In this document: one piece after another, positions 2,236-45,594 of the stretch | How the letters are laid out: each line of letters begins with the position of its first letter | How positions within the stretch are numbered: position 1 is the stretch's first letter | Origin: Gammaproteobacteria bacterium | GTDB taxonomy: Bacteria > Pseudomonadota > Gammaproteobacteria > JABABF01 | Length of the DNA stretch: 64,000 nucleotides | Assembly: GCA_965205525.1 (NCBI GenBank) | Contig: OZ242171.1 | Location: 518,289 to 582,288, forward strand | Direction of reading: 5' to 3' | Made by a program: the position numbers and the translations under genes | The notes under the pieces: generated by a model | What the model was told of the DNA's origin: nothing | Seen by the model: only the letters and a program-made list of their open reading frames with translations | Database searches by the model: none

Positions 2236-4926
<2,691 letters not shown>

Positions 4927-4935
4927 CCCCTTCCT

Positions 4936-5520: not shown

Positions 5521-5546
5521 CCAAGCGGGCCCGCCCGCCCTGCTTT

Positions 5547-8224: not shown

Positions 8225-8248
8225 CTGGTATCTGCCCCGGAAAGTGCA

Positions 8249-10820: not shown

Positions 10821-10930
10821 GTGCAATCCCAAGGAGCGGCCGGGCAAGCCGCCAAGCGCTGGAAATCTCGGAAGGGCAGAGACAGCCTATAGCTGGCGGC
10901 AGCGGCCCTTCAATTGCGGCGCGGGCGAGG

Positions 10931-11500
10931 CTATCGCAGGAGCGATAGAAATTCGTTGCGCGTCGCCGCGCTGGCGTGGAAGCAGCCTAGCATCGCGGAT
11001 GTTTTCATAATCGAATTCTGCTTTTCCACGCCGCGCATCATCATGCACAGGTGGCGTGCCTCAATGATCACCCCGATCCCGGCGGCGCCGGTAACATCGA
11101 GGATAGAGGTCGCGATCTGTCTCGTTAACTCCTCTTGGATCTGCAGGCGACGGGCGTACATATCCACGATGCGCGCCACTTTGGACAGGCCCAGCACCTT
11201 GCCTTCTGGGATGTAGGCGATGTGGCATTTCCCGATAAAGGGCAGCAGATGGTGCTCGCACAGGGAGTACAGCTCTATGTCCTGCACCAGGATCATTTCG
11301 CTGGCATTGGAAGGGAAAAGCGCGTTGTTAACCAGGTCGTCCAAGTTCTGCTGGTAGCCCCGGGTAAGAAAGCGCAGCGCCTGCGCCGCCCGGACCGGCG
11401 TGTCCAAGAGACCCGGGCGTTCCAAGTCTTCACCAATTTCTTCAATCAAGCGGATATAGGCTTTTTCCATGGAGGGACCTGCGGGGGCTGAAGACTGCAA
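10931..11500 (-). CDS. folE: GTP cyclohydrolase I
   Basis: [13 protein letters not shown] and HLCMMMRGV FolE motifs; the start may be the internal ATG at 11470 (MEKAY...). Confidence 0.9.
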
Positions 11501-11544
11501 AGAGGGAGAATTCTAACAGGGGGGGCAGGTATAATGCGAATTCT

Positions 11545-13838: not shown

Positions 13839-13995
13839 GCCAGTGGCCGGAGGCTGCTGATAGACATAGCCGTCGGGGACTCTCTCTGGGCAGCGGCGAC
13901 TACGCTGCCGTTGCCTGCAAATATGCGGCGGTGCCGGCGGCAAGAATGACGGGCAAGGCGGTGGTGGTGCCTTGGAGAGTGGTCGGGGAGTGAAG

Positions 13996-15213
13996 CTAGG
14001 GTCTGCAGAGATCTGCCGTGAAGCTCGTGCGCCCGCCCCCCACTGCAGGGGTAAATTCCAGGGTGGCTTCAAGACCGGAAATAGAGAGGGATGTGTAGGT
14101 GCCGCTGCTGTCTTGGGGATCCGGCATGAGTGCCAGTTGAGAGAGATCGTCTCCCCCCGTGTATTCCCCGCTAATGGGGGTGCCGGTGGGGTCGGTATCG
14201 GCATCTACCCGCACGCCGCTTATGCTGCCGTCCGCATGGAAATTCATTTCCAGCAGCACACTGCCGGTGGCGGTGCTCACCATGCGCCATCGCAGATCTG
14301 TCAGCGGAGTATCGCTGAGCCGCTGCACATCCATCGGGCCAGTTGGCGAAGTTCTGGCAATGCTCCTGTAGTCCCGGGCAAATCGGCCGGTGAAGTCCCG
14401 GCGGGTTCCCGCTTCCGTGTCAATTTCTGCAAAGCTGAGGTCCGTGTCCGCCGGCAGCGGGGTACTGCGGAATGCACCGCGAATGTCCAGCCCCGCATCG
14501 CTCAATCCGTATATAGAATTCACCGGCAGGGAGGCGGGCAGGGCGAAGGTGCCCGAGTCATCGCTGTCGCTGTAGCGGTATACGCCCGCTGCATGACAGC
14601 GCTGGGCCGCTTGCAGTCTCGCGATAGCATCCGTCAGGGCTGGGTAGTCCTCTCCCGCGGCGGGGAGATTTGGAAAATCTGCCAGGAGACCGGTGCCTGC
14701 AACATAGGGGCCGCCGCTTATCGACTGCACGGCATCGTGCATGATAATGCGGCTATGGAGTTCATTGGCAATAACAATCCGGTCCGTGTCTGAATTGCTG
14801 TGCAGACCTTGCAGGAAGGCGGCGACCTGTTGCACGATTGCTACGTTACCGGAGAGATCGGCCGGGGTGAGGGTCAGTCCCTCTGTGCTGGCTTCGGCCC
14901 TGGTGATAGCAGTGCCCCCCAGCTCCAGGCGATCATCGCTGTCTGCGGCATCGTCGCCGAGAAAGAAGACAACCCTGCTCGCCCTGTCCCTGGGGTAGCG
15001 GAAGCTGCCCAGCGGATCGGTGCGTCCGCTCCTTGAAACACTGTTGCTCTCCAGCACCTCGTAGAAGACACCCTGTACCGGGTCGTCGCTGAAGCGCCCT
15101 GCATAGAAATTTTCTTCCGAGTTTTCATCCTCATCATCGCTGTCTTCGTGACAGCCTGCGCTGAAGCCGAGTGCCAGGAACAGCAGGAGAAAATGCAGAT
15201 AGCGAATTGTCAT
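13996..15213 (-). CDS. lipoprotein of unknown function with acidic post-lipobox linker (candidate exported/T2SS-associated protein)
   Basis: ATG at 15213; signal peptide MTIRYLHFLLLFLALGFSAGC (lipobox LGFSAG|C) followed by HEDSDDEDENSEE; 405 aa, host-like GC; no recognisable domain. Confidence 0.6.
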   Translation of the reverse strand: MTIRYLHFLLLFLALGFSAGCHEDSDDEDENSEENFYAGRFSDDPVQGVFYEVLESNSVSRSGRTDPLGSFRYPRDRASRVVFFLGDDAADSDDRLELGGTAITRAEASTEGLTLTPADLSGNVAIVQQVAAFLQGLHSNSDTDRIVIANELHSRIIMHDAVQSISGGPYVAGTGLLADFPNLPAAGEDYPALTDAIARLQAAQRCHAAGVYRYSDSDDSGTFALPASLPVNSIYGLSDAGLDIRGAFRSTPLPADTDLSFAEIDTEAGTRRDFTGRFARDYRSIARTSPTGPMDVQRLSDTPLTDLRWRMVSTATGSVLLEMNFHADGSISGVRVDADTDPTGTPISGEYTGGDDLSQLALMPDPQDSSGTYTSLSISGLEATLEFTPAVGGGRTSFTADLCRP

Positions 15214-15312
15214 GGGGAGCTGGGGCTCTGTTTTGCTGGGGAAACAGGTGAATTGTAGCACAGTGGACAATGCTTTTGAATGTCTTGTAAGAATCATTAT
15301 GTATTGTCAATC

Positions 15313-15376
15313 TGTACTTTTGCGGCATGATCCTTTGCTAAATTGTCTTGACGGCTCTTCTCATCTTTGAGGATTA
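15313..15376. repeat. degenerate copy of the glycosyltransferase gene's stop-9nt-ATG junction and first ~55 nt (direct repeat partner of 16611-16684)
   Basis: Read on the - strand, the GT gene's TAA stop is followed by tcctcaaagATGagaagagccgtcaagacaatttag, then ATGccgcaaaagtacagattgaca. This is ~85% identical to the GT gene's own start ttcctgaagATGaaaagagcagtcaaggcagtcaagaaaatttggcgaaggatcataccgcaaaagtatagattgata. Confidence 0.75.
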
Positions 15377-16672
15377 ATAGAAAAAGGGATCAGTAGAAAA
15401 TCCCGTCTTTGCTGGTTGGAAATCATCATCATTGGTCATGATATAGTCAATATCATAACCGTCTGCTTTGCCTTCTGCATAGTGAATCATGTAATTTTTT
15501 TTATTTAGGGTTTTCATGACGTTATGTTTTTTGATAAGAATTCCATTGAGTTTTTTATTACGAAAATAAGAAAGCGATAGACTATTATTAAACCAGTTGC
15601 CAGGTCCTGCAATGATGTAATTACAATCAGCTAAAAGATGTATATTCTTTACAGACGACATGGTCTCTTGTTTTATTAATTCCGGATGACGTATAAGCAT
15701 ATCAGCATTCAGAAGATCATAACGTTTTTCATTATCATCATAAATAAAGTCTATTTCTGAATTTTTAGGTAAGAGCTGAATAGCCTCTTCTGAATCGGTC
15801 GTTACAAATACCGTCTTGATGCCAGTTTGATGGACTACTTGCTTAACTATTTCAAGGTACTTTTGAATAGGAATAAAGCGATGCTTTTCAAAATCTTTAT
15901 TTAATCCCCCTTGTCGTATGTGAACACCAATAATTGGATTTTTGAACCCTATTTCCTTCCTTTTCTTTTCAATATGAGCCTTATATTCTTGTTTTAGTTT
16001 CAAGAAAGAGCCTAAAATAAGGCCTCTAGTGTAGATTGGGTGTAACGGTAAAGATAACGGGTGAACAGAATTTAAAAGTTCAGGCAATAACGGCGAATTG
16101 AAAGTTTGAAAAAAGCCAGAGTAAACGACTTTTCCTTTTTGGGGCAAGCCATTGAATTTAATTGCTTTCTTGTTATATTTTGGGTGTATATCTTCCAAAG
16201 AGTGAATGGATATAGGTTCGTAGCAAAAATCATAAACCAATTGACTACTATCATACAATAATGCCCGATTATACAAATAACTATAGGCGAGCCCTTTACT
16301 AAGAGGATCTAAAACAGCGGCTCCAAAACCATAATGGGAGTTCCCAGCATTAACTATAAGGAATTTTGATTCTTGGAAAGGAATTCCAAATTGCAGTAGC
16401 TGAAGTTTGTTAAGTATCATGGAATCCAAGGATTTGAATGTATCCGGTGGATAATTATGTGGCGATATAGTTTTAGATAAAATAAGCCCTGTTTTCTTTG
16501 CATATAATTTGACTCTAAGATTTAAAATGAGATCTTGGAGGTCTTGGATAAATTCCCTCACTCTGCCAGCCAAAAGAGGAGGGAGGACTCTGATTCTATA
16601 TAGTATCAATCTATACTTTTGCGGTATGATCCTTCGCCAAATTTTCTTGACTGCCTTGACTGCTCTTTTCAT
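15374..16672 (-). CDS. fucosyltransferase-superfamily glycosyltransferase (NodZ/FUT8 GT23-like or GT11-like), horizontally acquired
   Basis: 432 aa ORF at ~33-37% GC in a ~62% GC genome, rich in K/N/I/Y. Motifs IGVHIRQGG (compare NodZ IGVHVRHGNGE and GT11 HIRRGDY), VFVTTDS (NodZ VFLCTDS) and LLADCNYIIAGPGNWF (NodZ LLGRCDTVIRFPPTSAF). Starts 9 nt after the gspN stop, same strand. Confidence 0.6.
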   Translation of the reverse strand: MKRAVKAVKKIWRRIIPQKYRLILYRIRVLPPLLAGRVREFIQDLQDLILNLRVKLYAKKTGLILSKTISPHNYPPDTFKSLDSMILNKLQLLQFGIPFQESKFLIVNAGNSHYGFGAAVLDPLSKGLAYSYLYNRALLYDSSQLVYDFCYEPISIHSLEDIHPKYNKKAIKFNGLPQKGKVVYSGFFQTFNSPLLPELLNSVHPLSLPLHPIYTRGLILGSFLKLKQEYKAHIEKKRKEIGFKNPIIGVHIRQGGLNKDFEKHRFIPIQKYLEIVKQVVHQTGIKTVFVTTDSEEAIQLLPKNSEIDFIYDDNEKRYDLLNADMLIRHPELIKQETMSSVKNIHLLADCNYIIAGPGNWFNNSLSLSYFRNKKLNGILIKKHNVMKTLNKKNYMIHYAEGKADGYDIDYIMTNDDDFQPAKTGFSTDPFFY

Positions 16673-16684
16673 CTTCAGGAATTA
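16611..16684. repeat. direct repeat partner: gspN stop, 9-nt spacer and 5' end of the glycosyltransferase gene
   Basis: See 15313-15376. This copy carries an internal 9-bp duplication (cttgactgccttgactgc, AVKAVK). Confidence 0.75.
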
Positions 16685-17647
16685 TTCCTTTTGTAGATTA
16701 TCGTTGGGCGAGGGCTCGGGCGGTACAGCGACAGCAGATGAGGGAGCTCCTGTCCCCGATTCTGTCGCCGCTTCCCCGGAGGCTGTTTCGGGTGTTTGTG
16801 ACTCCGCTGCCTGAGATTTGTATGCTTCCGGCGGCTTGAGGCTCTGCGGTCCCGCACTGCCGGGGGGGATTGCCAGGCTCAAGAGAAAGGCGCCGTCCGG
16901 CTTCGGCGCGCCGGCGATATCCCGCAGGCGTTGTCGCAGCAGCGCCCCCGCATCCTGCCGGGGCACAATCCGTCCGCTGGCTCCGGCCGCACCGCCGCCG
17001 TACCAGAGCATCCCTTGCACTTCCAGGGGGCCGCCGAAATCCTCTAGGGCGGCCAGCAGATAGCCCGCTTCATCCCGGGCCAAATCTGCGGCCAGGTTGC
17101 CGAAGGCGAGTGAGCCCCCCCGGATATTCAGCTGGCTGTTCTGCCAGCCGAGGGAGGCATCCACCTCCCGGATCTCTCCGGACCAGCGAAGATGCCTTAT
17201 CCGCAGACTGATCTCCCCCTCGGCATTCATGCCCTTGGGCAGCCAGGGACTGAGGAGAGGAGCCTTGCCGAGCACCAGCGCATCCCGGAGCAGGATGCTG
17301 CCATTAATCCCCGCAATTGCTGTGCCAGAAATTTCCCTGTCCGCCGCCGTCGCTTCCACTTGCAGCTGCACCCGGGCGAGCAGGAGGGCGGCTGGAGACA
17401 GCCGCCATTGCAAGCGTCCCAGGGACAGCCAGTTGCCCCGCACTTGCACCGCTGCCAGCTCTGCGTTTCCTTGCCACAGGGTGCCGCTCACACCTTCCAG
17501 GTGAAGGATGGGTATCTGCTGGCTGAGCCAGCCCGCCGCCAGCCGCGCCGGGGCGGTGACGGCCAGGGACAGGATAAAAATGCCGGCGCCGAGAGAAACT
17601 ATCAGCGCAGGAGAGGGGCGGAGCAGGGCGGCGAGATTAAGCTGCAT
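16682..17647 (-). CDS. gspN: type II secretion system protein N
   Basis: Last gene of the gsp operon, N-terminal TM segment, GspN-like core; unusual ~75-aa Pro/Ser/Ala/Glu-rich C-terminal tail. Confidence 0.75.
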   Translation of the reverse strand: MQLNLAALLRPSPALIVSLGAGIFILSLAVTAPARLAAGWLSQQIPILHLEGVSGTLWQGNAELAAVQVRGNWLSLGRLQWRLSPAALLLARVQLQVEATAADREISGTAIAGINGSILLRDALVLGKAPLLSPWLPKGMNAEGEISLRIRHLRWSGEIREVDASLGWQNSQLNIRGGSLAFGNLAADLARDEAGYLLAALEDFGGPLEVQGMLWYGGGAAGASGRIVPRQDAGALLRQRLRDIAGAPKPDGAFLLSLAIPPGSAGPQSLKPPEAYKSQAAESQTPETASGEAATESGTGAPSSAVAVPPEPSPNDNLQKE

Positions 17648-17659
17648 GGGGAATGGCCT

Positions 17660-18139
17660 TCAATACTGCAAGCGGGCTTGCACATTGACGAGGCCGGCAT
17701 CCCGGGCCGCGATGATGCTGATCTTCTGGATGATGGTATCGCCCTTGTATTCCAGATCGTGAAACCATCGGGCCACACGGCTGAACTCGGTGTTTTTCAG
17801 CCATACCTGTACGCCGCCATTCTTGCCGGCCTGCAGTCGATCTATGCGTATTCCCCTCGCCCTGGCCGCCGTCTCTGTCGCTTGGGCCAGGTTGCGCTCC
17901 TTGCCGGTGTCGCCCCCCCGGCTCCGCTGCAGCAGCGAGAAGTCTGCAGTCGCCTGCTGCAGCCAGGCGAGATCTGTCGCCAGCCCCCGGTTGGCCGAGA
18001 CCAGCTCCTGATTCTTGGCGGCCAGGGGGGAGAGGACGAAGGCGATGGACAAAAACAGGCTGAGACCGATGGCGGCTGCCACCAGTATCAGCTGCTCTCG
18101 GGCGCTACGCTGCAGAAACCATTTTTGCACTATGTTCAC
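17660..18139 (-). CDS. gspM: type II secretion system protein M
   Basis: 159 aa, single N-terminal TM segment, lies between gspL and gspN, 4-nt overlap with gspL. Confidence 0.8.
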   Translation of the reverse strand: MNIVQKWFLQRSAREQLILVAAAIGLSLFLSIAFVLSPLAAKNQELVSANRGLATDLAWLQQATADFSLLQRSRGGDTGKERNLAQATETAARARGIRIDRLQAGKNGGVQVWLKNTEFSRVARWFHDLEYKGDTIIQKISIIAARDAGLVNVQARLQY

Positions 18140-19401
18140 AGTGCCTTCGCCCCTTCTGCTTTCCCCTCTTCACCGCCGAGTGAGCAGCTGAGCCTGGCCC
18201 GCACCCGTTCGTTCTTGGAGTTGCTGTTCAGGAGGCGGGAGGAGACGCCTGCCTGCTGCATTGCATCCCGTATTTTTTGGATGTCGGTGAATTCCGGCAC
18301 ATCTATTTCCGTACGCATCTGCCCCTTTTCGCTTTCGTAGTTTATTGAAATGAAGCGGGCGAGGGGCACTGTCTGCAAAGCGATGCCGGAACGCACAAAA
18401 ATTTCGCTAAAGCGGCTGACCCGGTTTCCAGACTGGCGTCTTCCTTCCAGCTCCTCCTGCAGGCGAGTCCGTGCAGTGTCAATGCTAAGACCCGCCGCAT
18501 CCGGGAAGACCTGCTGATAGGTCCGAGAGGCCGCGATGCGTATTCGCCGGTTCTCCTCATTTAAAGTCTGGTGCTTGGCATAGTCAGCCGCTCCTTGCAG
18601 CAGCAGGGCACCGATTACAAAGAGCGCCGCGATGCGCCATTGCAGCCAGATGTCCATCCAGGGTATGCGGCGGCTGAAGTCCCCCTGCATGAGATCTATG
18701 ACATCGGCATCTTCCTGCAGAGCACCGATATCCCGGAAGGGCTCTGCGCTCTGCATCGTGCATATTTTCTGCAGTTTTTCTGGCAGGCAGCCGAGGGCGG
18801 CGGATTCTTCCGCCGCCTCCTGCACGGTGATTTGGATGCACTCCGGCAGCAGCAGCTCCGCCAGTTTTTCCAGCAGCAGCGGCCCGGTCTCGCTGTTGCA
18901 GACAAAGCCTGTGCTCCGCGCCGCCGAGACGAGCAGCTGTCCCTCCTCGTAGCTGCACGCCCAGCCCCCGGGAGGTCTCTCCAGCAGCTGCTGCTCCGGC
19001 AGACATAGAGCGGGCTCCAGGCCTGCCCCCTGCAGCTCCTGCAGCCAGCCCTGCAGGAGCTCCCGACTGACAATGGCCAGGTCCAGTGTGTCCGCATCCT
19101 GCCGTCCGGCGGCAAAATGCAGTGTCTCTATGCTGTCGGCTAAGTCTTCTTCCAGCAGGTAAGGTGCACTTTCCTGAATGTGGCGCCGCTCCTTGGAGCT
19201 GAACTGTATCTGCCGCAGCAAGGTGTCCCCGGCGGGGGCAGCCAGCACGAAAGTGCACTTGCCGGCGGCGGCGGCGATCTCCTGGGGTGTATTGCAGGCC
19301 GGCGGGTACGCCGCCCCCGCATCCCCTAAAGAGCGCCAGCGAAACATGCCCGGCTCCCCGGGCATCGGGCGCAGCAGTATGCAGAAATTTTTATCCGACA
19401 T
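18136..19401 (-). CDS. gspL: type II secretion system protein L
   Basis: 421 aa, cytoplasmic actin-like domain, central TM segment (WRIAALFVIGALLL), periplasmic C-domain; position in the operon. Confidence 0.8.
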   Translation of the reverse strand: MSDKNFCILLRPMPGEPGMFRWRSLGDAGAAYPPACNTPQEIAAAAGKCTFVLAAPAGDTLLRQIQFSSKERRHIQESAPYLLEEDLADSIETLHFAAGRQDADTLDLAIVSRELLQGWLQELQGAGLEPALCLPEQQLLERPPGGWACSYEEGQLLVSAARSTGFVCNSETGPLLLEKLAELLLPECIQITVQEAAEESAALGCLPEKLQKICTMQSAEPFRDIGALQEDADVIDLMQGDFSRRIPWMDIWLQWRIAALFVIGALLLQGAADYAKHQTLNEENRRIRIAASRTYQQVFPDAAGLSIDTARTRLQEELEGRRQSGNRVSRFSEIFVRSGIALQTVPLARFISINYESEKGQMRTEIDVPEFTDIQKIRDAMQQAGVSSRLLNSNSKNERVRARLSCSLGGEEGKAEGAKAL

Positions 19402-19422
19402 CGCGCTTTATCCGCAGCGGAT

Positions 19423-20520
19423 CTACAGGATGTCCGTACTGCGCACGATGGCGATCACTTCGGGCTTGCCGTCTGCAAGAAACTTGCGCTCCAGCACGCT
19501 CTGCAGGCGGTCCTCAATGCCGCCGACCCGGGCCCTGCCTTCAAACAGGAAGATGTTGCTGTGCACGGAAAGTCCCGGCTTATCGCACACGGCGATCCCT
19601 CCCACTCTAACAGAGGCGCAGAAGGAACTTACATGCCTGAAGCCGCATCTGAAGATCTGGTCATCGCCGCCTGAAAGGAATTTTGCAGTGTGATCTTCCC
19701 ATACGGTGGAACGTGCCACCAGAATGTCTTGGATCAGCTCCGGGTTGGTGACAGGCAGCAGATCAAACTGCCCGGTTCCTCCTGGCAGTGCCCGAAGCAG
19801 GTTGGTGCTGGCGCTGTTGACATTGATTTTGCCGGCGCTCCGATGGGGCCAGATAGTGAGGTCCCGCTTGATGCGGTTGTACAGCTTGGGGCTGACACTG
19901 GGTATCAGCCGCAATTCGCTGACGCTGCCCATGGGTCCGTTGGCCGTGCGGTAGTCCAGGCCCGCGGCGGCATAGGCATCATCCTCCATGCCTCCGAGGC
20001 CGGTGGGCTCGCTGTCTTTGTCAACCCAGTCACGGACTGCCTGGGCGATCAGGATCGCATCTTCCGGAGTGATTTCCAGCCCATAGGTCTGCAGAAGCCG
20101 TATGAAACGGGCTTGGTGGATACCAACAGGGAATTCCTGTCCCTCCCGGTAGGGTGCAATTGCCATGGAGTTGATGTTGAAGCGGGCACTGAGGTCCGTA
20201 ATGCTGAAGGAGAGAGAGCCCCCGGTGATGGGGAAGGGGGGACGGCTCCGGCTCCAGTTGTCGCAGGAGGCATCAATGTTTTTTCCCTGGCCAGATTTTT
20301 TGCTTTCCCAATGGTCCTCCATCAGCTCCCGCTGGGCCAGGGCCTCGGCCCCGAGCAGATATAAAAACCCCTGCTCGCCGTGGATGTAGTTGCTCTGGTA
20401 GCGGATGTTCAGCAGGTAGTTGCCGGCGATGCCCGTGCCCAGCCCGGCTACCAGGCCCACCACCAAAAGCGCCACCACCAAGGCGGCGCCTCGCTGAATT
20501 TTCCTGGGACCTGGGTTCAT
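19423..20520 (-). CDS. gspK: type II secretion minor pseudopilin K
   Basis: 365 aa, N-terminal GAALVVALLVV hydrophobic segment, GspK-like alpha-domain; position after gspJ. Confidence 0.85.
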   Translation of the reverse strand: MNPGPRKIQRGAALVVALLVVGLVAGLGTGIAGNYLLNIRYQSNYIHGEQGFLYLLGAEALAQRELMEDHWESKKSGQGKNIDASCDNWSRSRPPFPITGGSLSFSITDLSARFNINSMAIAPYREGQEFPVGIHQARFIRLLQTYGLEITPEDAILIAQAVRDWVDKDSEPTGLGGMEDDAYAAAGLDYRTANGPMGSVSELRLIPSVSPKLYNRIKRDLTIWPHRSAGKINVNSASTNLLRALPGGTGQFDLLPVTNPELIQDILVARSTVWEDHTAKFLSGGDDQIFRCGFRHVSSFCASVRVGGIAVCDKPGLSVHSNIFLFEGRARVGGIEDRLQSVLERKFLADGKPEVIAIVRSTDIL

Positions 20521-21218
20521 CAGGTTTCTCCCTGCTTCTGCTTCAATTTATTCTCCCATTCCCGGATGGTCGGGATATTGGGCCAGAAAGGGGCGATCTG
20601 GAACAGACGCCGGATTCTTCCCCAGTCCTCCAGCTCCAGCACGATTTCCACTGCCGGCGGTCTGTAGGAATCCGGCGAATCTTCCAGCCCAAGCTGCCAG
20701 CTGGACTCCCATTGCGAGCCGATCTCACGGTCTTCAAAGGAATCTTCTGAAATGATGGGTTTTAGAAAGTTCACCTGCACATCTCTCACGCCCTGCAAAA
20801 GGGTGACGAGGCGGGGGCGGCTTTCGCCGCTGTAGTCCAGGGCGGTCCATAGCTCCCGCTGCAGCTTGCCATCATCTATACGATAGAGTACCCGCTGCAG
20901 ATTGCTGCGGGCACGACCCGCCGGGTTCTCCCAGCCCGAGCGGGTCAGGGCAAAGAGGATTTCTCCGTCGCCGCCGTAAAAGGCGGTGCGGTGCTCGTCG
21001 CTGTCGGTGCGAATGGAGCGGGGTCGCGTCTGCCTGAGGTCCCGGGACAGGAGCACCATGGCCAGGTTGATCTCCCGCATGCGATCGCTCTGGACCTGGT
21101 TGCGCTCGTTGGCGCTCATAGCCGCATCAAGGCCGCTGAAAGCCATCAGGCCGACTATGGCGGTGATCATCATTGCCAGCAGCAGCTCTATCAGGCTGAA
21201 GCCTGCCCGTTTATTCAT
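20520..21218 (-). CDS. gspJ: type II secretion minor pseudopilin J
   Basis: Prepilin motif AGFSLIELLLAMMI, 232 aa. Confidence 0.85.
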   Translation of the reverse strand: MNKRAGFSLIELLLAMMITAIVGLMAFSGLDAAMSANERNQVQSDRMREINLAMVLLSRDLRQTRPRSIRTDSDEHRTAFYGGDGEILFALTRSGWENPAGRARSNLQRVLYRIDDGKLQRELWTALDYSGESRPRLVTLLQGVRDVQVNFLKPIISEDSFEDREIGSQWESSWQLGLEDSPDSYRPPAVEIVLELEDWGRIRRLFQIAPFWPNIPTIREWENKLKQKQGET

Positions 21219-21655
21219 TATGGTGATGGTGACTTCAGATCGGCCTCTGCATCTTCTGCGTAGGCGACGAAGTCGTTGAAAAAGCCCACCAGGGTTGCCA
21301 GGTTGCTCTCGCTTTCGCCGTCTTCACGCCAGACGGAGACCTCGGTGCGGTAGTAGTGGGGCAGGTCGGTGACCTCGGTGTCTAAGTGCCAGCGCCACCG
21401 GTAGCCGGCCATCTCCACGGTGCCCTCATCCTGGTCCTGAGGCGCCTCGCCGAGCAGCGCATTTTCAATTTGCAGCTCGGTGATCTTATTGCTCGCCACC
21501 CAGTTGGCGATGGTGCGGTTACGCATGTGGGCCGTCCCGTCCAGCTGCACCATCGTGGTGTACAGCAGCGCCGGCAGGGCGATGCCGATGATGGAGACGG
21601 CCACTAGCACTTCAATCAGGGTAAAGCCTTGCTGGTGCGGCCGCAGCCCGCTCAT
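21218..21655 (-). CDS. gspI: type II secretion minor pseudopilin I
   Basis: Prepilin motif QGFTLIEVLVAVSIIG, 145 aa. Confidence 0.85.
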   Translation of the reverse strand: MSGLRPHQQGFTLIEVLVAVSIIGIALPALLYTTMVQLDGTAHMRNRTIANWVASNKITELQIENALLGEAPQDQDEGTVEMAGYRWRWHLDTEVTDLPHYYRTEVSVWREDGESESNLATLVGFFNDFVAYAEDAEADLKSPSP

Positions 21656-22326
21656 AGATCGTCTCCCCCTTCAATCGTCATCTCTCCGTACAGGTTGCCC
21701 TTAAGGCGAACGGCGGTGACCGGGGAATCAAATTCATCCAGCACCGAAAAAATGAGGGTGAACGGGGTGATCTCGCCGCTGGACAGGAACAGCAGCTGGG
21801 GCCAGTGCTCATCCTCTTCCTCCTCCTCCTCTTTGCCCCAGGCCAGATCCTCCTCCTCCTGCTCTAGGCTTACCGCATCCTCTTCAGCCTCCAGCTCAAC
21901 GATCAGGCCCGGCTGCATCTTGCGGGAGGAGAAGCCGCTGCGATTGTCCACAAAGGGGCGCCAGCTTTCGCTGTTCCGGTGGTAACTCAGCCACTGGTAG
22001 CTGTACTGGGAGAGCCCGTCCGCCGCCGACTCCTCGCTTTTGAATTCAAGCCCCAGCTGTCTCCTAAACAGCACCGCCTCCTCGTGGGCCAGCCGCATCA
22101 CCCGGTGAAGCTGTCGCGCCTCTGCCTCGGCATCCGCCTGGGCACTGCGCCCCAGGCCCAGCCCGGCGATAGCGACGACAATGCTGATAATAAAAATGAC
22201 AACCAAGACCTCCAGCAGCGAGAACCCGCTGCCAGCGGCAGATCTTCTGCCGTGCCCTGGGACGGGGAAGGGTGCCAGCGTCTCAGTTAGTCTGCCAGTT
22301 GCCGAGGTCAGAGTCTTCTCCTTCAC
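21652..22326 (-). CDS. gspH: type II secretion minor pseudopilin H with an in-frame poly-Glu insertion
   Basis: Prepilin motif GSGFSLLEVLVVIFIIS. GTG start gives an unusually long 33-aa leader, so the start is uncertain. Contains EAEEDAVSLEQEEEDLAWGKEEEEEEDEHW encoded by (GAG/GAA)n. Confidence 0.8.
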   Translation of the reverse strand: MKEKTLTSATGRLTETLAPFPVPGHGRRSAAGSGFSLLEVLVVIFIISIVVAIAGLGLGRSAQADAEAEARQLHRVMRLAHEEAVLFRRQLGLEFKSEESAADGLSQYSYQWLSYHRNSESWRPFVDNRSGFSSRKMQPGLIVELEAEEDAVSLEQEEEDLAWGKEEEEEEDEHWPQLLFLSSGEITPFTLIFSVLDEFDSPVTAVRLKGNLYGEMTIEGGDDL

Positions 22327-22717
22327 CGCCGGCAGCGCCGTCGGCCCCTAAGGTCTGGATGTCAAAGGGACCTTTTTGGCCGGGCTTGCGGTAACTGTAA
22401 TTCCGTCCCCAGGGATCCTTCGGCAGACGGTCCAGGTAGCCTCCCGCCTTCCAGTTGCGGCCGCCGCCGCCGCTGGGCCTGGAAACCAGAGACTGCAGAC
22501 CCTGCTCGGTGGAGGGATAGGAATAGTTGTCCAGCCGGTAGATCTTGAGGGCGGTCTCAATGGTGCGGAAGTCGGCGAACACTTTCTGGGTGCGGGCCTG
22601 GGATACGCGCCCAAACACCTTGGGACCTACGTAACTCATCAGGATGCCGATGATGACCATGACCACCAGGACTTCTAACAGGCTGAAACCGCTTTGGGAA
22701 GGCCGAATGCGTTTCAT
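22283..22717 (-). CDS. gspG: type II secretion major pseudopilin G
   Basis: MKRIRPSQSGFSLLEVLVVMVIIGIL prepilin leader, 144 aa, highly conserved GspG core (DPWGRNYSY). Confidence 0.92.
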   Translation of the reverse strand: MKRIRPSQSGFSLLEVLVVMVIIGILMSYVGPKVFGRVSQARTQKVFADFRTIETALKIYRLDNYSYPSTEQGLQSLVSRPSGGGGRNWKAGGYLDRLPKDPWGRNYSYRKPGQKGPFDIQTLGADGAAGGEGEDSDLGNWQTN

Positions 22718-22752
22718 GATGATCTCTCCTCGCTTTGCATTGACGACAGGCG

Positions 22753-23976
22753 CTATTGTACCAATTCATTCAGCTCAAACATCGGCAGCAGCACTGCCAG
22801 CACGATGGTGAGCACCATGCCTGCCATGACCAGCACCATTATGGGCTGGAACAGGGACATCAGAGCACTGAGAGTCATTTCCAGCTCCCTCTCCTGGTTG
22901 ACGGCGGCGCGCTCTAGCATCTCCTCCAGTTTTCCGCTGGCTTCGCCGCTGGCGACCATCTGCACCATCATCGGCGGGAATTGGTTGCTTTCCTCCAGAG
23001 ACTTGCGCAGACTGCCCCCCTCGCGCACTGTGCTGCTGATGATATCCGCCGTGTCCTGAAGCACCAGGTTGGAGAACACCTCCCGGGAGATATGCAGGGC
23101 ATCTAGCAGGGGCACGCCGCTCTGGGTGAGAATGCTGAGCGTGCTGGCAAAGCGCGCCGTTTCCATCCCCCGCACCATCTCGCCGATAAAGGGTGTGCGC
23201 AGGAGCAGGCCGTGGAAGGTTCGCCGCCGCCCCTCCTCCTGCAGCAGCTGGCGTGCCACCAGCACGGCCGCGAATATGCCGAGCAGGCAGTACAGCCCGT
23301 AGGCCTGCAGAAAGTCGCTGATAGCGATCAGCCCCACGGTCAGTCCCGGCAGATCCGCCGACGTGCTTTCAAAAATTGTGACCAGCTTGGGGACCACGAT
23401 GGTCATCATGGCGCCTACCACGGCGATCGCTACCAGGATCAGAACGATGGGGTATACCATCGCCGACTTGAGCTTCTGCTGGGACTGCTGGCGGTTTTCT
23501 GTGTATTCAGCCAGGCGTTCCAGCACCGCTCCCAGGAAGCCGGCATGCTCCCCAGCCCGCACCAGGGCACGGTACAGGTTGTTGAATATCTTCGGGTGTT
23601 CGCCCATGGCCTGGGCTAGGGTCAGCCCTTCGTTGATCCGGTTGCGAACTTGCAGCAGGATATCCTTGAGATGGTCCCGGCGGCACTGGCGCGCAGTCGC
23701 CTGCAGGGCCTCGTCCACGGTCAGACCGGATTGCAGCAGCACTGCCAGCTGGCGTGTGATCAGGGACAGGTCATTGATGCTGATCCCCTTCTCAAACAGG
23801 GATAGGTGGAGGAAGGCGCTGAGACCGCCCCCGGGCTTGCTGCCCTCATTTACTTTCAGGGGGCGCAGCCCCTGCTTGCGCAGCAGATCCCGAGCCTGGC
23901 GCTCGGAATCCCCTTCAATAACTCCCTTAACCCGTTTGCCCGTGGTATTCAGGGCTTGGTATGCGTAGGTACCCAT
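22753..23976 (-). CDS. gspF: type II secretion inner-membrane platform protein F
   Basis: 407 aa, duplicated GspF/PilC domain, 3 TM segments. Confidence 0.9.
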   Translation of the reverse strand: MGTYAYQALNTTGKRVKGVIEGDSERQARDLLRKQGLRPLKVNEGSKPGGGLSAFLHLSLFEKGISINDLSLITRQLAVLLQSGLTVDEALQATARQCRRDHLKDILLQVRNRINEGLTLAQAMGEHPKIFNNLYRALVRAGEHAGFLGAVLERLAEYTENRQQSQQKLKSAMVYPIVLILVAIAVVGAMMTIVVPKLVTIFESTSADLPGLTVGLIAISDFLQAYGLYCLLGIFAAVLVARQLLQEEGRRRTFHGLLLRTPFIGEMVRGMETARFASTLSILTQSGVPLLDALHISREVFSNLVLQDTADIISSTVREGGSLRKSLEESNQFPPMMVQMVASGEASGKLEEMLERAAVNQERELEMTLSALMSLFQPIMVLVMAGMVLTIVLAVLLPMFELNELVQ

Positions 23977-23992
23977 TGCGCTCGCTGCCTGC

Positions 23993-25555
23993 TCACTCGG
24001 CCAGAATTACACGGAGCAGCTCTTCAAAAGTAGTTTCCCCGTTCAGCACGCGCCGGCGCCCATCCTGCAGAATGCTGTCGCTGTTCTGGCGCGCGATGCG
24101 GGTCATATCCTGCTCTCCGGCACCCTTATGAATCATCTCCCGCAGCTCGTCATTCACCTGCACCAGCTCGTAGATGCCGGTGCGCCCTCGGTACCCCAGC
24201 TGGTTGCATTCCTCGCAGCCCTTGGCCCGGTAGATGACCGCATCCCGCTCAAGTTCTAAGCGCTGGCGTTCCAGCTCGCTCGGTTCGTAGGGCTCGCGGC
24301 AGGAGGGGCATAGCCTGCGCACCAGACGCTGGGCTATCATCGCCAGCAGGCTGGAGGACAGCAGAAAGGATTCCACGCCCATGTCCTGCAGGCGGGTGAC
24401 GGCACCGATGGCGGTATTGGTGTGCAGAGTGGACAGTACCAGGTGACCGGTGAGGCTGGCCTGCACCGCGATGTCTGCGGTCTCCACGTCCCGGATTTCT
24501 CCAATCATCACTACGTCCGGGTCTTGGCGCAGGATGGCCCGCAGCCCGCGGGCAAAAGTCATGTCCACCTTGGTGTTGACCTGGGTCTGGGCGATGCCTT
24601 CCAGCATGTATTCCACCGGGTCCTCTATGGTCATAATGTTGCGCGAGGTCTCGTTAATATCCGTGAGACCCGCGTATAGGGTGGTGGTCTTGCCGGAGCC
24701 GGTGGGACCGGTTACCAGGATGATGCCGTGGGGCGTATGCAGGGCATTCTGAAAGTGCTGGCTGTTGGTTTCGCTCATCTGCAGCTGGGCCACCGACAGG
24801 CGGCCGGCCTCCGTGTCCAGGAGGCGCAGCACCACCCGCTCGCCGTGGGCGGAGGGGATGGTGGACAGGCGGATATCCACCGCATGGCCGGCGATGCGCA
24901 CCGATATGCGCCCGTCCTGGGGGATGCGTTTTTCGGCGATATCCAGCCTCGCCATCACTTTGAGGCGGGAGACCAGCAGGGGGGCCAGCCGACGGTTCGG
25001 CGACAGCACATCCCGCAGCACGCCGTCCACGCGAAAACGCACGGAGACGTTTTCTTCAAAAGTTTCAATGTGAATGTCCGATGCCTGCTCGCGCACTGCC
25101 TGGGACAGCACCGCGTTGATAAGCCGCACTACCGGAGCATCGTTCTCCCCCTCCATCAAATCGGTGGTGTCGGGGATTTCATCCGCCAAGCGGCCGAGGT
25201 CGGAGTCTGCATCCAAATCTGCGACAGCCTGCTCCGCATCGCTGTCGCCGCTCTGGTAGAACTCTGTCAGGCGAGTTTGGAAATCCTCCTGTCCCAGTAT
25301 TTCCGGCGGCAGCAGGGGGCGGCGAGTGAAGCGGTGCACCTCCATCAGGATGTCTAGGCTCGGCAGGGTTTCCCGGCATACAGGCAGCATCCCCTCGGGT
25401 TTTTCCTCCAGCAGAATGCTATGGTTGCGGGCGAACAGGTAGGGCAGCCGGCGGCGGGTGCCGTTTTCCCCGGCGTCCAGCCCCTCAGCGGCCTCCATCG
25501 CCTCTGGGGCGATGGCCGCGGCGGCAGTATTTTTTTCAGTGACCGGAGTGCTCAT
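23993..25555 (-). CDS. gspE: type II secretion ATPase E
   Basis: Walker [10 protein letters not shown], Asp/His boxes, C-terminal tetracysteine CPSC...CEEC; start chosen at the MSTPV ATG 1 nt after the gspD stop (the listed ORF extends to 25585). Confidence 0.92.
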   Translation of the reverse strand: MSTPVTEKNTAAAAIAPEAMEAAEGLDAGENGTRRRLPYLFARNHSILLEEKPEGMLPVCRETLPSLDILMEVHRFTRRPLLPPEILGQEDFQTRLTEFYQSGDSDAEQAVADLDADSDLGRLADEIPDTTDLMEGENDAPVVRLINAVLSQAVREQASDIHIETFEENVSVRFRVDGVLRDVLSPNRRLAPLLVSRLKVMARLDIAEKRIPQDGRISVRIAGHAVDIRLSTIPSAHGERVVLRLLDTEAGRLSVAQLQMSETNSQHFQNALHTPHGIILVTGPTGSGKTTTLYAGLTDINETSRNIMTIEDPVEYMLEGIAQTQVNTKVDMTFARGLRAILRQDPDVVMIGEIRDVETADIAVQASLTGHLVLSTLHTNTAIGAVTRLQDMGVESFLLSSSLLAMIAQRLVRRLCPSCREPYEPSELERQRLELERDAVIYRAKGCEECNQLGYRGRTGIYELVQVNDELREMIHKGAGEQDMTRIARQNSDSILQDGRRRVLNGETTFEELLRVILAE

Positions 25556-25556
25556 G

Positions 25557-27584
25557 CTACTGTGCCTCGCTGCCTTCTTCCGCATCGCGGGCCAAGCCTT
25601 CCTCCTGCAGTGTCTGCTGCAGATTCTCGGCCCAGTCCGGCAGTACAGGGACTTCTTCTGGTTCTAAGAAGGATACCCCCTGGGTGCGTTTTTGCAGCTG
25701 CGCACTGCGTATGTTGAGATACCTTTTCCTGCTTTCCTTATTCGCTTTTTCGGGGGTGCGGATGATGATCGGGCGGATAAAGATCAGCAGGTTGGTCTTG
25801 TCCACATCCACCGACGTACTTTTGAACAGAAAGCCGAGCAGGGGGATGTCCCCAAGCAGGGGAATCTTGCGCTTGTTCTCCTCTATGGAATCGGTGATCA
25901 GCCCGCCGAGCACGACAATATCCCCGTCTCCCGCCAGCACCGTGGTAGTGATCTTGCGCTGGTTGGTGATGATGTCAGCGGCCCCGGAAGAGCCGGTCAC
26001 GCTGGACACCTCCTGCTCCAGTTCCAGCAGCACCGTGTCGCCTTCGTTGATGTGAGGGGTCACCTTCAGGGTAACCCCCACATCCCTTCTGGATATGGTC
26101 TGGAAGGGGTTCACAGCGTTGTTGCTATTGCCAACATAGGAGCCGGTGAGAAAGGGCACGTTCTGTCCTACCACCACCGATGCCTCCGTGTTGTCCAGGG
26201 TCAGCAGGCTCGGCGTGGACAGGATGTTCACCGCCACGTTTCTGTTCAGCGCGGTGAGAATGGCGCCGAATAGATGGTCGCTGTCGTTCAGGTCGCCGAT
26301 GGCGGCGATCTGGCCTTCAACAGCGGAGGCCCGGCCCGCCAAATTTTCCAGCAGGTCCTGGGCGCCATCGGAATCGCCGACGGCCAGGGTCAGGGCGCGC
26401 AGGCTGCCCGCGCCACCGCTCCCGGAGCTGAACAGGCCGTGGTCGGCATCGGCGAAGAGATATTCAAAGCCCAGATCCTTGTCATTGTCATCCCGCACTT
26501 CCACCACGATTGCCTCCACCAGCACCTGGGCGCGACGGATATCCAGACGGGAGATGATCAGCTCCAGAGCCCGCATGGTCTCGTTGTCCGCGGTGATGAT
26601 CAGGGAGTTGGTGGCATCGTCCGCTTCCACCCGTGCCTTCTGCTGCGACCGGCCTGCGCCCTCCTGCTTCTGGATGTTTTCAATGACCTTGTTGAGGATT
26701 GGGGCCAGTTTGTCCGCCTCTGCATATTTGAGGTATTGCACCCGCGCATTGCTGACCCGCCCGATAGGGGCATCCAGCTGGGCAATCAGCTCCAAGGCCT
26801 TCTGCCGTTCCTGCTCCGGCCCCCGGAGCAGGATGGTGTTGGTGCGTCCATCCGAGGTTATGATCAGGATGTCTCCCTTCTCCTTGCTGTCTTTGGTCTC
26901 CAGTGCCTTGATCAGCCGAATGATCTCCTCGGCATCGGCATATTGCAGTTCCACCACATCCAGCTGGTCCTTGGAACTGATGTCCAGCTGACCGATGACC
27001 TTCATCAGCTTTGCGATGTTGGCCGCACTGTCGGAGATGATGATGGAGTTGGTGGGAGGGTAGGCGGCCAGGTGGCTCTGCTGGGGGAGAAGCGGGCGGA
27101 TGACGGATACCAGCTTACTGGCTGCGATATTCCGAAGGGGCAGCACCTGGGTCACGATTTCAAAGTTTTCACGGCCGGTGGCGCCTTTGCCCACGGGCCC
27201 GGGCTCGGTGCGGGCCGCCTGCTCGGGCACGATGTTGACGATACCGCTCTCCATGTGCACCGCGGTGAAGCCTTGCGCATCCAGAATTGCCAGAAACAGG
27301 TCGTACAGCTGCTCTTCGTCTACCGGCTGGTTGGAGATGATCTGCGCCTTGCCCTTCACCCGGGGATCAATAAGAAATGTCTTGCTGGTGACATCGGCGA
27401 CGAAGCGAATAATTTCAATAATCTCCGTATCTTCAAAGTTGATCGTGTAGGTTTCGGCGCGGGGTGCTCCTCCGGGCAGCAGCAGCATCGCTGTCAGCAT
27501 CCCGCACAAAAGCCGCGTGCGTGCGCCTCTTTGCCCCGCGCATGACGGGCGCAGGGAAGCGAGAGCAAAGGGACGGGTTTTCAT
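25557..27584 (-). CDS. gspD: type II secretion outer-membrane secretin D
   Basis: 675 aa, signal peptide, N0-N3 domains and secretin domain (VVLGGLI...IPLLGDIPLLGFLFKS). Confidence 0.92.
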   Translation of the reverse strand: MKTRPFALASLRPSCAGQRGARTRLLCGMLTAMLLLPGGAPRAETYTINFEDTEIIEIIRFVADVTSKTFLIDPRVKGKAQIISNQPVDEEQLYDLFLAILDAQGFTAVHMESGIVNIVPEQAARTEPGPVGKGATGRENFEIVTQVLPLRNIAASKLVSVIRPLLPQQSHLAAYPPTNSIIISDSAANIAKLMKVIGQLDISSKDQLDVVELQYADAEEIIRLIKALETKDSKEKGDILIITSDGRTNTILLRGPEQERQKALELIAQLDAPIGRVSNARVQYLKYAEADKLAPILNKVIENIQKQEGAGRSQQKARVEADDATNSLIITADNETMRALELIISRLDIRRAQVLVEAIVVEVRDDNDKDLGFEYLFADADHGLFSSGSGGAGSLRALTLAVGDSDGAQDLLENLAGRASAVEGQIAAIGDLNDSDHLFGAILTALNRNVAVNILSTPSLLTLDNTEASVVVGQNVPFLTGSYVGNSNNAVNPFQTISRRDVGVTLKVTPHINEGDTVLLELEQEVSSVTGSSGAADIITNQRKITTTVLAGDGDIVVLGGLITDSIEENKRKIPLLGDIPLLGFLFKSTSVDVDKTNLLIFIRPIIIRTPEKANKESRKRYLNIRSAQLQKRTQGVSFLEPEEVPVLPDWAENLQQTLQEEGLARDAEEGSEAQ

Positions 27585-27614
27585 ATTGTGGGCCTGTTGT
27601 GAAAATATGCGGAC

Positions 27615-28535
27615 TCAGCGCAGCTTGAGCAGCAGCTCCAGATGCCCCTTCCCGCGCTTCATCAGAAAACTGGCTTCGCTGGCATTGCGCATGGAAGCGT
27701 GGGCCTGCTGCAATGCGCTGAGACTGGTGAGATCAACATTGTTGATCGCCATGATCATGTCGTTGCTGCGAAAGCCGAGCTGGATAAAACTGCGGGCATC
27801 GCTGCGTGGACTGATCCGGTAGCCAATGATGTCCTTTCCCTTGCGCACAGCCGAAAAGCTGATGACCTTGCTCAGATCAGTCGGATTTTTCATCAGTTTA
27901 TCGTAGTAGCGCTTGGCGGCCTTGGTAGCCAGCTTGTTGCCGCGCCGGTCAAGAACTTTTGTGTTTTCCGGCCGCTTTTTATTTTTCTTGTCGTACAGGC
28001 TGAGACGCTCCACTTTGCCGCTGTTGAGCTCAATCAGCACGTGGTCCTGCAAAATGCTCTGCACTTTGGCCTTGGCGACCGGCAGCTCGTCGCCGGGTGC
28101 ATATATCTCCTGCTTGTTGTTGTGACGAATGGCGGCCCTGGCAAGGGCGGGGTTGCTTGAATACATGATGCCGGACAGCCTTAGGTTGAGAGGCGTTTCT
28201 GTCGGTTCCGATGCAACGGCATTGGGCGCTTCGTATTGGCCGAAAAGCGGCTGCCCGGTGAGGGTCTCAATCGCGGGGGGCGGACCGCGCAGTTCCGCCG
28301 CCGAGAGGGGCGGAGGCACCGAGGGGGCCAGGTTGATCGGTGCGGGCGCCGTCGGCGCCGGGAGCAGAGACCAGACCAGCTGGGCGCTCAGGTAGACGAG
28401 CCATGTCCCGATTGCCAGGGCCGCGAGGGCCTGCAGCTGTGCTGCGACCTGGGGCCAGTCAAGATTTTCCAAGATTTCCCTGACCTTCCCCAGCGTCGCC
28501 GCGGGGAGTAGCTGTGTTGCTGTGCCAGTAGCCAT
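27615..28535 (-). CDS. gspC: type II secretion system protein C (PDZ-type)
   Basis: First gene of the operon, N-terminal TM segment, Pro-rich linker, HR domain, C-terminal PDZ-like domain. Confidence 0.8.
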   Translation of the reverse strand: MATGTATQLLPAATLGKVREILENLDWPQVAAQLQALAALAIGTWLVYLSAQLVWSLLPAPTAPAPINLAPSVPPPLSAAELRGPPPAIETLTGQPLFGQYEAPNAVASEPTETPLNLRLSGIMYSSNPALARAAIRHNNKQEIYAPGDELPVAKAKVQSILQDHVLIELNSGKVERLSLYDKKNKKRPENTKVLDRRGNKLATKAAKRYYDKLMKNPTDLSKVISFSAVRKGKDIIGYRISPRSDARSFIQLGFRSNDMIMAINNVDLTSLSALQQAHASMRNASEASFLMKRGKGHLELLLKLR

Positions 28536-45540: not shown

Positions 45541-45594
45541 CATTGCAGCAGTGCAGAACAGCAAACTCGGCAAAAACATCTGAAAGGGAAAAGC

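Follow-up and report, generated by a model that had tools for sequence, protein, structure and literature searches.

Two fucosyltransferases of glycosyltransferase (GT) family GT23 are the closest described counterparts of the gene reported here: FUT8, the eukaryotic core alpha-1,6-fucosyltransferase (PF19745), and NodZ (PF05830), the rhizobial alpha-1,6-fucosyltransferase of chitooligosaccharide Nod factors, a soluble enzyme with an N-acetylglucosamine (GlcNAc)-type acceptor. The gene lies in a 64-kb stretch of contig OZ242171.1 (positions 518,289 to 582,288; hereafter the window), which belongs to a gammaproteobacterial metagenome-assembled genome (MAG; GCA_965205525.1), and it is placed between a type II secretion system (T2SS) operon and a lipoprotein gene, in the same orientation as both. 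Pilin-glycosylation genes, such as TfpO/PilO and TfpW, adjoin type IV pilin genes, and the E. coli T2SS-beta operon yghJ(sslE)-pppA-yghG-gspC..M carries lipoprotein genes. We know of no pseudopilin glycosylation, and our literature search found neither this nor a T2SS-linked glycosyltransferase, nor anything relevant on sponge symbionts and fucosyltransferases. Here we report that the gene encodes a GT23-type enzyme, that it derives from a tandem array of the kind carried by Dehalococcoidia, and that the corresponding site is empty in related T2SS operons.

Resemblance to FUT8 extends to the window motif GFKNPIIGVHIRQ, which aligns with FUT8 GFKHPVIGVHVRR (including the HVR of FUT8 GVHVRR), to the guanosine diphosphate (GDP)-binding His and Arg of FUT8, both of which are present, and to the helical region N-terminal to the FUT8 catalytic domain; unlike FUT8, the window protein is bacterial, probably cytoplasmic, lacks a signal-anchor and is ~17-18% identical to the animal enzyme. 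By analogy, NodZ may be the most plausible mechanistic model, and the family member at a second T2SS locus (L010, see below) exceeds the NodZ cut-off (30.2 versus 28.3 bits), whereas the window protein has ~100 extra N-terminal and ~60 extra C-terminal residues and no nod-gene context. As in the E. coli T2SS-beta type, a fixed, co-oriented lipoprotein gene accompanies the operon, in the manner of a pilotin or dedicated lipoprotein substrate; here, by comparison, the 405-aa lipoprotein has no detectable family similarity, and a literature search returned no fucosyltransferase-bearing T2SS operon. Similarly to TfpO/PilO and TfpW, a glycosylation gene is co-oriented with a machine of the type IV filament family, and at L010 a Wzy_C-type gene adjoins the T2SS operon. 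TfpO/PilO and TfpW, however, are periplasm-acting membrane oligosaccharyltransferases, whereas the window enzyme is a soluble GT-B nucleotide-sugar transferase, and its association with the secretion operon is not present in the window's relatives.

A GT23-Type Enzyme of Foreign Composition

The 432-aa product is a GT23-type enzyme of the GT-B fucosyltransferase fold. A sequence-only reading of the window had proposed this class from the motifs IGVHIRQGG, VFVTTDS and LLADCNYIIAGPGNWF, all of which were found in the open reading frame (ORF), and the assignment is sustained by sequence and structure searches. In profile searches of the protein, Pfam FUT8_N_cat (PF19745) was matched with an E-value of 8.8e-7 and 28.5 bits, just over the cut-off of 27.6, and NodZ scored 13.7 bits, under its cut-off of 28.3. 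A profile of 25 family sequences searched against the PDB retrieved FUT8 chains (E 1.8e-11) and NodZ (E 0.007), and in structure comparison the protein had a GT-B fucosyltransferase fold and lay closest to members of GT23. The FUT8 profile match comprises two stretches, one covering the helical and first Rossmann region and the other motifs I and II; the HMMER alignments end before motif III, short of the equivalents of FUT8 Asp453 and Ser469. The ~110-aa basic N-terminal portion, previously regarded as an extension, is not an add-on, as all family members conserve this portion and a part of it accounts for the alignment to the pre-catalytic helical region of FUT8.

Motif I contains H251-x-R253, and both residues are invariant across the 25 family sequences and align to FUT8 His363 and Arg365. 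In FUT8, these are GDP-site residues conserved across all fucosyltransferase structures, and the His-x-Arg of motif I binds the GDP base and beta-phosphate (bioRxiv 10.1101/2020.02.14.949818). Judged from this alignment, the donor (GDP) site of the window protein is plausibly intact. The C-terminal region was modeled with low confidence, and an SH3 domain is not demonstrable there. The top structural match of the protein in BFVD is to Mimiviridae sp. ChoanoV1 (E 8.8e-10).

The ORF is foreign in composition, as the sequence-only reading had noted, with a GC content of 0.345 and a third-codon-position GC content (GC3) of 0.31, versus 0.611 for the window. The segment from 15101 to 16750 is the sole strongly deviant one in the 64 kb, reaching a minimum of 0.30, and the other GC dips stay at 0.43 or above. 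The gene also contains an in-frame 9-nt tandem duplication (GCAGTCAAG twice, 16646-16663).

Donor Array, Junctions and Empty Sites

The insert can be followed at the nucleotide level to a tandem array of GT23-like paralogues. Window positions 16702-15298 match positions 8483-9893 of locus L017 at 88.3% identity over 1426 nt, with the non-coding junctions included (BLAST). L017 presents, in order, a paralogue 3' remnant, a 9-nt spacer, a 434-aa orthologue of the window protein (86% amino acid identity), a spacer and the start of the next paralogue, and the junction between its paralogues P0005 and P0006 again has a 9-nt spacer. This locus is syntenic with OZ242209, a 2.2-Mb Dehalococcoidia MAG chromosome, with which it shares the order rpoC, class II aminoacyl-tRNA synthetase, citrate synthase, methyltransferase, GT array, PfkB kinase and GT11. 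Neighbor-joining trees pair the window protein with P0002 as its sister, inside the radiation of Dehalococcoidia paralogues, and the GC3 of its gene equals that of donor-side genes. ClpX from the window's genome is 88, 88, and 81% identical to ClpX of three relatives (L012, L015, and L016) and 71-75% identical to that of Spongiibacter, Halioglobus, Cellvibrionales and Arenicellales, which, together with gene order, places the host in a gammaproteobacterial lineage and indicates that the transfer crossed phyla.

Both ends of the fragment are donor-derived (Table 1). On the left, the C-terminus of GspN now reads NDNLQKE-stop, with the stop codon supplied by the paralogue-derived end; paralogues P0004 and P0005 end in DDNLQK(E), and the L017 counterpart is GDDNLQKE-stop, 9 nt and an ATG. 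The gspN stop (16684-16682) and the next ATG (16672-16670) are separated by exactly 9 nt, in full agreement with the sequence-only reading, which had taken this spacing as a sign of operon coupling. That interpretation fails, since the gap is the donor array spacer, copied together with seven codons of the upstream paralogue. The spacers in L017 are of equal length and near-identical sequence (TTCTCAAAA and TTCTCAAAG), and a second window spacer after the GT stop (TCCTCAAAG, 15365-15373) is near-identical to TTCCTGAAG.

On the right, the GT gene is followed by the dead start of a further paralogue, which reads MRRAVKTI-stop-QRIMPQKYRLTIH, a Trp codon having changed to TAG. It appears just after the GT stop as a direct repeat of the GT 5' end (15298-15355 versus 16597-16654, 58 nt ungapped, 84%), which extends to ~80 nt once a 9-nt indel is allowed and which the sequence-only reading had not noted. 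This start shares 82-85% identity with the starts of paralogues in L001, L002, and L017, aligns to L017 9770-9893, and matches the N-termini of P0003, P0004, and P0006, which read QKYRLTIH. The filler beyond 15298 had no BLAST match in the fetched donor loci, and host-like sequence (TGTGCTACAATTC...) resumes at ~15259, as judged from the intergenic regions of L012 and L015. Homology to L012 ends at window position 16827 and restarts at 15221, such that ~700 nt of L012 (GspN tail repeats and intergenic sequence) correspond to ~1600 nt in the window. On our preferred reading, the position of the GT gene after the T2SS genes and the 9-nt gap result from where and how the fragment landed and do not mark an evolved T2SS accessory.

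The orthologous operons lack the gene. In L012, L015, and L016, an orthologue of the lipoprotein gene lies directly 3' of gspN of a complete T2SS operon (gaps of 10-148 nt) and tblastn detected no GT remnant; L013 and L014, which cover the lipoprotein side only, have no GT either. Downstream synteny is retained, with chorismate synthase and GTP cyclohydrolase I genes in all and a major facilitator superfamily gene also in L016. The earlier statement that a glycosyltransferase is not a standard T2SS accessory is upheld, and a T2SS accessory defined by conserved operon position was rejected on the grounds of the empty sites.

Table 1. Features at the insertion site and in the adjoining secretion operon (window coordinates).
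Feature	Position	Strand	Remarks
T2SS operon, gspC-gspM	17660..28535	(-)	Host DNA, ~61% GC; ORFs, Pfam and orthologous operons
gspN, 321 aa	16682..17647	(-)	Pfam T2SSN E 6.6e-27; last 7 codons foreign
Left end of fragment	16682..16702	(-)	GATAATCTACAAAAGGAATAA = DNLQKE-stop, 3' end of upstream GT paralogue
9-nt spacer TTCCTGAAG	16673..16681	(-)	Inter-paralogue spacer from donor array
GT23-like (FUT8/NodZ-type) GT-B fucosyltransferase gene, 432 aa	15374..16672	(-)	GC 0.345, ORF intact
Right end of fragment: 9-nt spacer and dead paralogue 5' end	15298..15373	(-)	Direct repeat; alignment to L017
AT-rich filler, ~38 nt	15260..15297	(-)	Between donor-like and host intergenic sequence
Promoter-like site TTCAAA-17-TACAAT with upstream TG	15252..15280	(-)	Consensus scan; before lipoprotein gene
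405-aa acidic lipoprotein gene	13996..15213	(-)	Signal peptide, lipobox, host-like GC

With regard to the vehicle, the insert has no integrase, transposase, inverted terminal repeats or att-like site. A mobile element (insertion sequence, integron cassette or phage) was rejected, as the insert holds nothing besides the GT gene and paralogue remnants and repeats only the 5' end of the paralogue. We likewise discarded a circular intermediate of one unit because the insert exceeds one unit and is not permuted. Sponge FUT8 is an unlikely direct source given the low identity to animal FUT8, in a species set that did not include a sponge sequence. A scan of IMG/VR with the family profile returned no relatives.

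Synonymous divergence (dS) from the nearest allele sampled amounts to 0.17. The ratio of nonsynonymous to synonymous divergence (dN/dS) lies at 0.40-0.46 for the closest orthologues and at ~0.27 across paralogues. These values fit a recent acquisition of a gene under purifying selection in the donor, with selection in the new host not demonstrable from the data. On the window branch, 57 AT->GC and 36 GC->AT changes were counted, a weak and unpolarized excess that was left out of dating. We hold the transfer of the fragment and the identity of the protein with high confidence. Both the enzyme class (GT23) and the process of horizontal gene transfer are already known; what is new is a sponge-symbiont subfamily, its tandem-array biology, its movement across phyla, the reconstruction at base-pair level and two independent insertions in T2SS operons. 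With the donor unit, the junctions and the empty sites all visible, this is an unusually clean, base-pair-resolved case of recent inter-phylum transfer among bacteria that share sponges, and it carries a caution for T2SS biology, namely that adjacency and tight spacing can come from the donor.

Proposed Mechanism and Its Weighing

The best overall explanation, which we favor with moderate confidence, combines a recent transfer, read-through expression and a fucosyltransferase that acts on a surface glycan. The source was a tandem array of GT23-like paralogues such as those in Dehalococcoidia sponge symbionts, from which a linear fragment of ~1.45 kb (~15260-16702), slightly over one array unit, was presumably taken up by a sponge-symbiont gammaproteobacterium. 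The fragment comprises seven terminal codons with the stop codon from the preceding copy, then a 9-nt spacer, the full gene, a further 9-nt spacer and ~22 codons from the start of the following copy. Joined to gspN near its 3' end, presumably by illegitimate recombination, it displaced the end of the gspN low-complexity tail and most of the intergenic region between gspN and the lipoprotein gene, leaving an in-frame fusion.

Presumably without a promoter of its own, the GT gene is probably transcribed by read-through from the T2SS operon. A consensus scan between gspN and the GT gene revealed no convincing promoter-like or terminator-like site, and nothing there speaks against read-through from gspN. 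The enzyme would be cytoplasmic, inverting and dependent on GDP-L-fucose, if GDP-fucose is available, and may add fucose to a precursor of a surface glycan (lipopolysaccharide, exopolysaccharide or protein-linked glycan); the FUT8 and NodZ analogy would make this an alpha-1,6 linkage to an acceptor of the GlcNAc type. The intact ORF and the dN/dS values speak for a gene that is likely functional. For this functional part of the mechanism, we regard the chances as evenly balanced.

Several observations weigh against this account. No counterpart of Glu373, the catalytic base of FUT8, can be clearly aligned in the window protein; among the 25 sequences, the family loop after HIRQG is variable and has no conserved Glu, and the Glu373/Lys369 pair is not clearly conserved. 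The residue that follows HIRQG is Gly in the window and Asp in most of the family, and within motif III the stretch with the Ser is GPGNWF, which leaves activity and specificity uncertain. These HIRQG-loop and GPGNWF variants are common to the donor-side orthologues (HIRQGK and AGPGNWF in P0002 and L017), which indicates that they do not reflect decay in this host. Moreover, GDP-fucose synthesis genes were not found within the 64-kb window, and in a host of 61% GC, expression may suffer from the AT-rich codon usage. With respect to origin, the nearest allele is 88% identical (dS 0.17), which implies that the true donor is an unsampled relative. Lastly, the second T2SS case, at L010, argues against a pure accident of landing site.

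Alternative Explanations

An unlikely alternative is that the insert is an inert passenger, a very recent neutral insertion that has no useful expression or no substrate and is bound to decay. It would account for the absence of amelioration (GC3 0.31 in a 61% GC genome), codon usage strongly at odds with the host, the dead paralogue ends that flank the gene on both sides, a site that is empty in all sampled relatives, the lack of fucose-nucleotide genes nearby in the window, and a dN/dS against the nearest orthologues (0.40-0.46) that exceeds the family value (~0.27). The 1.3-kb AT-rich ORF is nonetheless still intact and keeps all family-invariant residues, although an intact ORF counts for little if the insertion happened very recently. 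An older family member in the same genome (P0037, see below) suggests a pathway context, and the insertion has at least been tolerated, as the gspN domain and the lipoprotein gene are intact after the in-frame fusion.

We consider it improbable, too, that the GT gene is kept by co-expression with the T2SS and glycosylates something that the machine handles or displays, with the 405-aa neighbor or another secreted or surface lipoprotein, the GspN tail rich in P/A/S/T, or a lipid-linked glycan for an O-oligosaccharyltransferase as candidates. An observation in favor of such functional coupling came from tblastn of the window Gsp proteins against all family loci, which uncovered L010 (OZ243040, Ca. 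Oxydemutatoraceae, 89-19575), where an 857-aa in-frame fusion of two GT23-like copies lies between gspE and gspF, in the direction of the operon. The order there is Wzy_C+TPR, gspC, gspD, gspA, gspB, gspE, the fusion, and gspF through gspN. The L010 and window copies are 37-38% identical and occupy different operon positions, which indicates that the two insertions are independent. Two of ~7 independent gammaproteobacterial loci thereby fall in an operon that represents ~0.65% of gene junctions (P ~9e-4, a naive and post hoc value). The PAAAASPGTTTPKSPV-type repeats in GspN of the relatives, which presumably resemble bacterial O-glycosylation sequons, and a lipoprotein gene that is fixed in this clade's operon point in the same direction, as does the presence at L010 of the Wzy_C+TPR gene ahead of the operon.

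Against coupling stand the three relatives whose T2SS and lipoprotein genes are arranged identically, with no GT gene at the junction, and the donor origin of the spacing and of both junctions. The family expansions are largest in Dehalococcoidia, in whose family loci no T2SS gene was seen by tblastn; to our knowledge, monoderm Chloroflexota lack T2SS. Other gammaproteobacterial copies follow mdh, rpoE-rseA-rseB-degP or trp genes, or belong to glycan clusters, no Wzy_C/PglL-like gene occurs near the window operon, and no T2SS link was found at the family loci examined other than the window and L010. The secretion-coupled glycosylation put forward in the sequence-only reading finds no support in the empty sites or the donor-derived spacing, and owes the low probability that we leave it to the second T2SS insertion. 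In L010, the GT part has a GC content of ~0.5 versus 0.64 in the flanks, and the Wzy_C+TPR (O-antigen-ligase/PglL-like) gene is directly upstream of gspC.

More doubtful still is a broader proposal, in which the family circulates from Chloroflexota to Gammaproteobacteria and is repeatedly captured in T2SS operons as fucosylation tied to T2SS export or display. Candidate targets would be the clade-specific acidic lipoprotein, the mucin-like tail of GspN, or a host-mimicking surface glycan. If true, this would be the first module known to link a glycosyltransferase to a T2SS, and T2SS-tied fucosylation would be a candidate determinant in the discrimination by sponges between symbionts and food bacteria. 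The two independent insertions of GT23-like genes in T2SS operons in any case provide a lead for T2SS biology.

An assembly artefact, in which the low-GC block is a chimeric join of co-occurring Dehalococcoidia reads, might be entertained because the source is a MAG and the related GT-bearing contigs and those of the relatives all come from ENA metagenome assemblies with similar accession numbers. It is scarcely credible given a block of 1.45 kb that is flanked by host sequence within a 2.0-Mb contig, 88% rather than ~100% identity to the nearest donor sampled, a left junction at which an exact in-frame fusion supplies the gspN stop, and unique filler at the right one.

Distribution of the Family Among Sponge Symbionts

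Returning to the preferred reading, in which a transferred fucosyltransferase acts on surface glycans, we consider the family as a whole. It is very small: a search of 5.8 billion proteins yielded 25 clusters, several per contig, and a profile search of 1.84 billion representatives gave 27 clusters at E<=1e-30, with a wider family of 641 representatives at E<=1e-3. Apart from P0023 and P0024, the 25 relatives each have a precomputed PF19745 match. JGI metagenome contigs scanned with the family profile contained no relatives. The named carriers are two Dehalococcoidia MAGs, Ca. Poriferihabitaceae, Ca. Oxydemutatoraceae, and two unclassified Gammaproteobacteria MAGs; all carrier contigs originate from metagenome assemblies, and the named lineages feature in papers on sponge holobionts. 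The analysis thus brings to light an uncharacterized GT23-like subfamily whose named carriers are exclusively symbiont MAGs of the sponge-metagenome type.

The genes are compositionally distinct from their surroundings in most carriers. At 10 of the 12 core-family loci measured, GC of the GT gene is 5-13 points under that of the locus or flanks (for example, 0.33 versus 0.41-0.46, 0.47 versus 0.56, and 0.52-0.54 versus 0.61), which points to an unsampled low-GC source; the exceptions are L008, with a gap of ~4 points, and L018, where gene GC is not lower. Copies are mostly in tandem, with 2-5 per locus and ~10 in OZ242209. The Dehalococcoidia arrays (L002/L003, L004, L005, and L017; MAGs OZ242209 and CBDBCK01) have 33% GC in genomes of 46-50%, and the first ~80 nt of their genes are 82-85% conserved versus ~70% for the gene bodies, with a low-GC GT11 nearby. 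In Ca. Poriferihabitaceae, L006 (6437-11146) comprises three tandem units of ~1.77 kb, each with a 390-aa GT23-like gene that is followed, in two of the three, by a small ORF (135-197 aa) without a Pfam match.

Glycan genes often adjoin family members, which supports a role of the family in building surface glycans. GT11 and a PfkB kinase lie beside some members, and other neighbors include GT2 with an epimerase and UDP-glucose dehydrogenase, as well as GT10. We infer that the family helps symbionts in the sponge holobiont to diversify their surface glycans, and fucosylated surface glycans are plausible in host recognition, which makes the family a reasonable target for work on sponge symbiosis.

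Individual loci show further features. A Sulfotransfer_2/galactose-3-O-sulfotransferase-like gene, a glycan-modifying enzyme of eukaryotic type, occurs right after a three-copy GT23-like array in L009 (12753-13739). In L011 (6270-11143), the GT23-like gene is co-directional at the 3' end of the rpoE-rseA-rseB-degP envelope-stress operon. The window's contig (1,998,239 bp) carries a second member, P0037 (426 aa), which is older, divergent and compositionally host-like. Distant members include a Parcubacteria protein and a gene in a GT9/NeuB lipooligosaccharide-like cluster. A 617-aa homologue (profile E 1.9e-50) is encoded on Tara and marine metagenome contigs with a GC content of 0.23 (L022-L024), which are giant-virus-like, with a TFIIS zinc ribbon, NAD-dependent DNA ligase, many ORFans, GT47, GT25, and methyltransferases.

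The T2SS Operon and the Lipoprotein Gene

The host operon itself is complete. In agreement with the sequence-only reading, gspC to gspN run unbroken on the minus strand from 28535 down to 16682, as supported by the ORF list and order, by Pfam matches in the window to T2SSC (gspC), T2SSL/GspL_C (gspL), T2SSM (gspM), and T2SSN (gspN), and, for gspD-K, by orthologous operons that carry Pfam T2SS D-N labels together with tblastn. The operon is 81% identical to those of L012 and L015 over 9.3 kb of nucleotide sequence. Window GspN has a whole T2SSN domain (residues 48-254) and a shortened P/A/S/T-rich C-terminal tail; in an alignment its length is 321 aa versus 369-463 aa in L012, L015, and L016. 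The C-terminus of GspN in the relatives (L012 9426-9843; also L015) contains seven 60-nt (20-aa) repeats that are 96% identical, P/A/S/T-rich and mucin-like, an array that is not present in window GspN.

The downstream lipoprotein with host-like GC, which had also been recognized from the letters alone, is confirmed. The ORF spans 13996-15297, and its most likely start at 15213 (MTIRYLHFLLLFLALGFSAGC) opens a signal peptide with a lipobox Cys. The lipobox, ..FSAG-C21 (MTIRYLHFLLLFLALGFSAG-C21), is followed by HEDSDDEDE, and C21 and its flanking residues are invariant by inspection in the four orthologues. Besides the window's own protein, only three homologues were found (63-72% identity; four sequences among 5.8 billion). 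Neither Pfam nor NCBIfam gave a match at E<=1, a profile search of the PDB was also empty, and the AlphaFold2 model from four sequences had a mean predicted local distance difference test (pLDDT) score of 40.5. Known T2SS pilotins are ~130 aa long; a pilotin of the GspS/PulS/YghG type was rejected for the 405-aa window protein, which has no similarity to pilotin families. The lipoprotein could be a dedicated T2SS substrate or accessory protein. Two further cysteines, C206 and C403, are invariant, and the C-terminus FTADLCRP is conserved.

The site at 15252..15280 is a candidate promoter of the lipoprotein gene by consensus match, with the -10 TACAAT in host sequence common to L012 and L015 and the -35 in the filler. 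Elsewhere in the window, two mild low-GC dips (0.43) occur at 5551-5950 and 45451-45800, the latter adjoining the window's single tRNA gene (45980-46063, minus strand).

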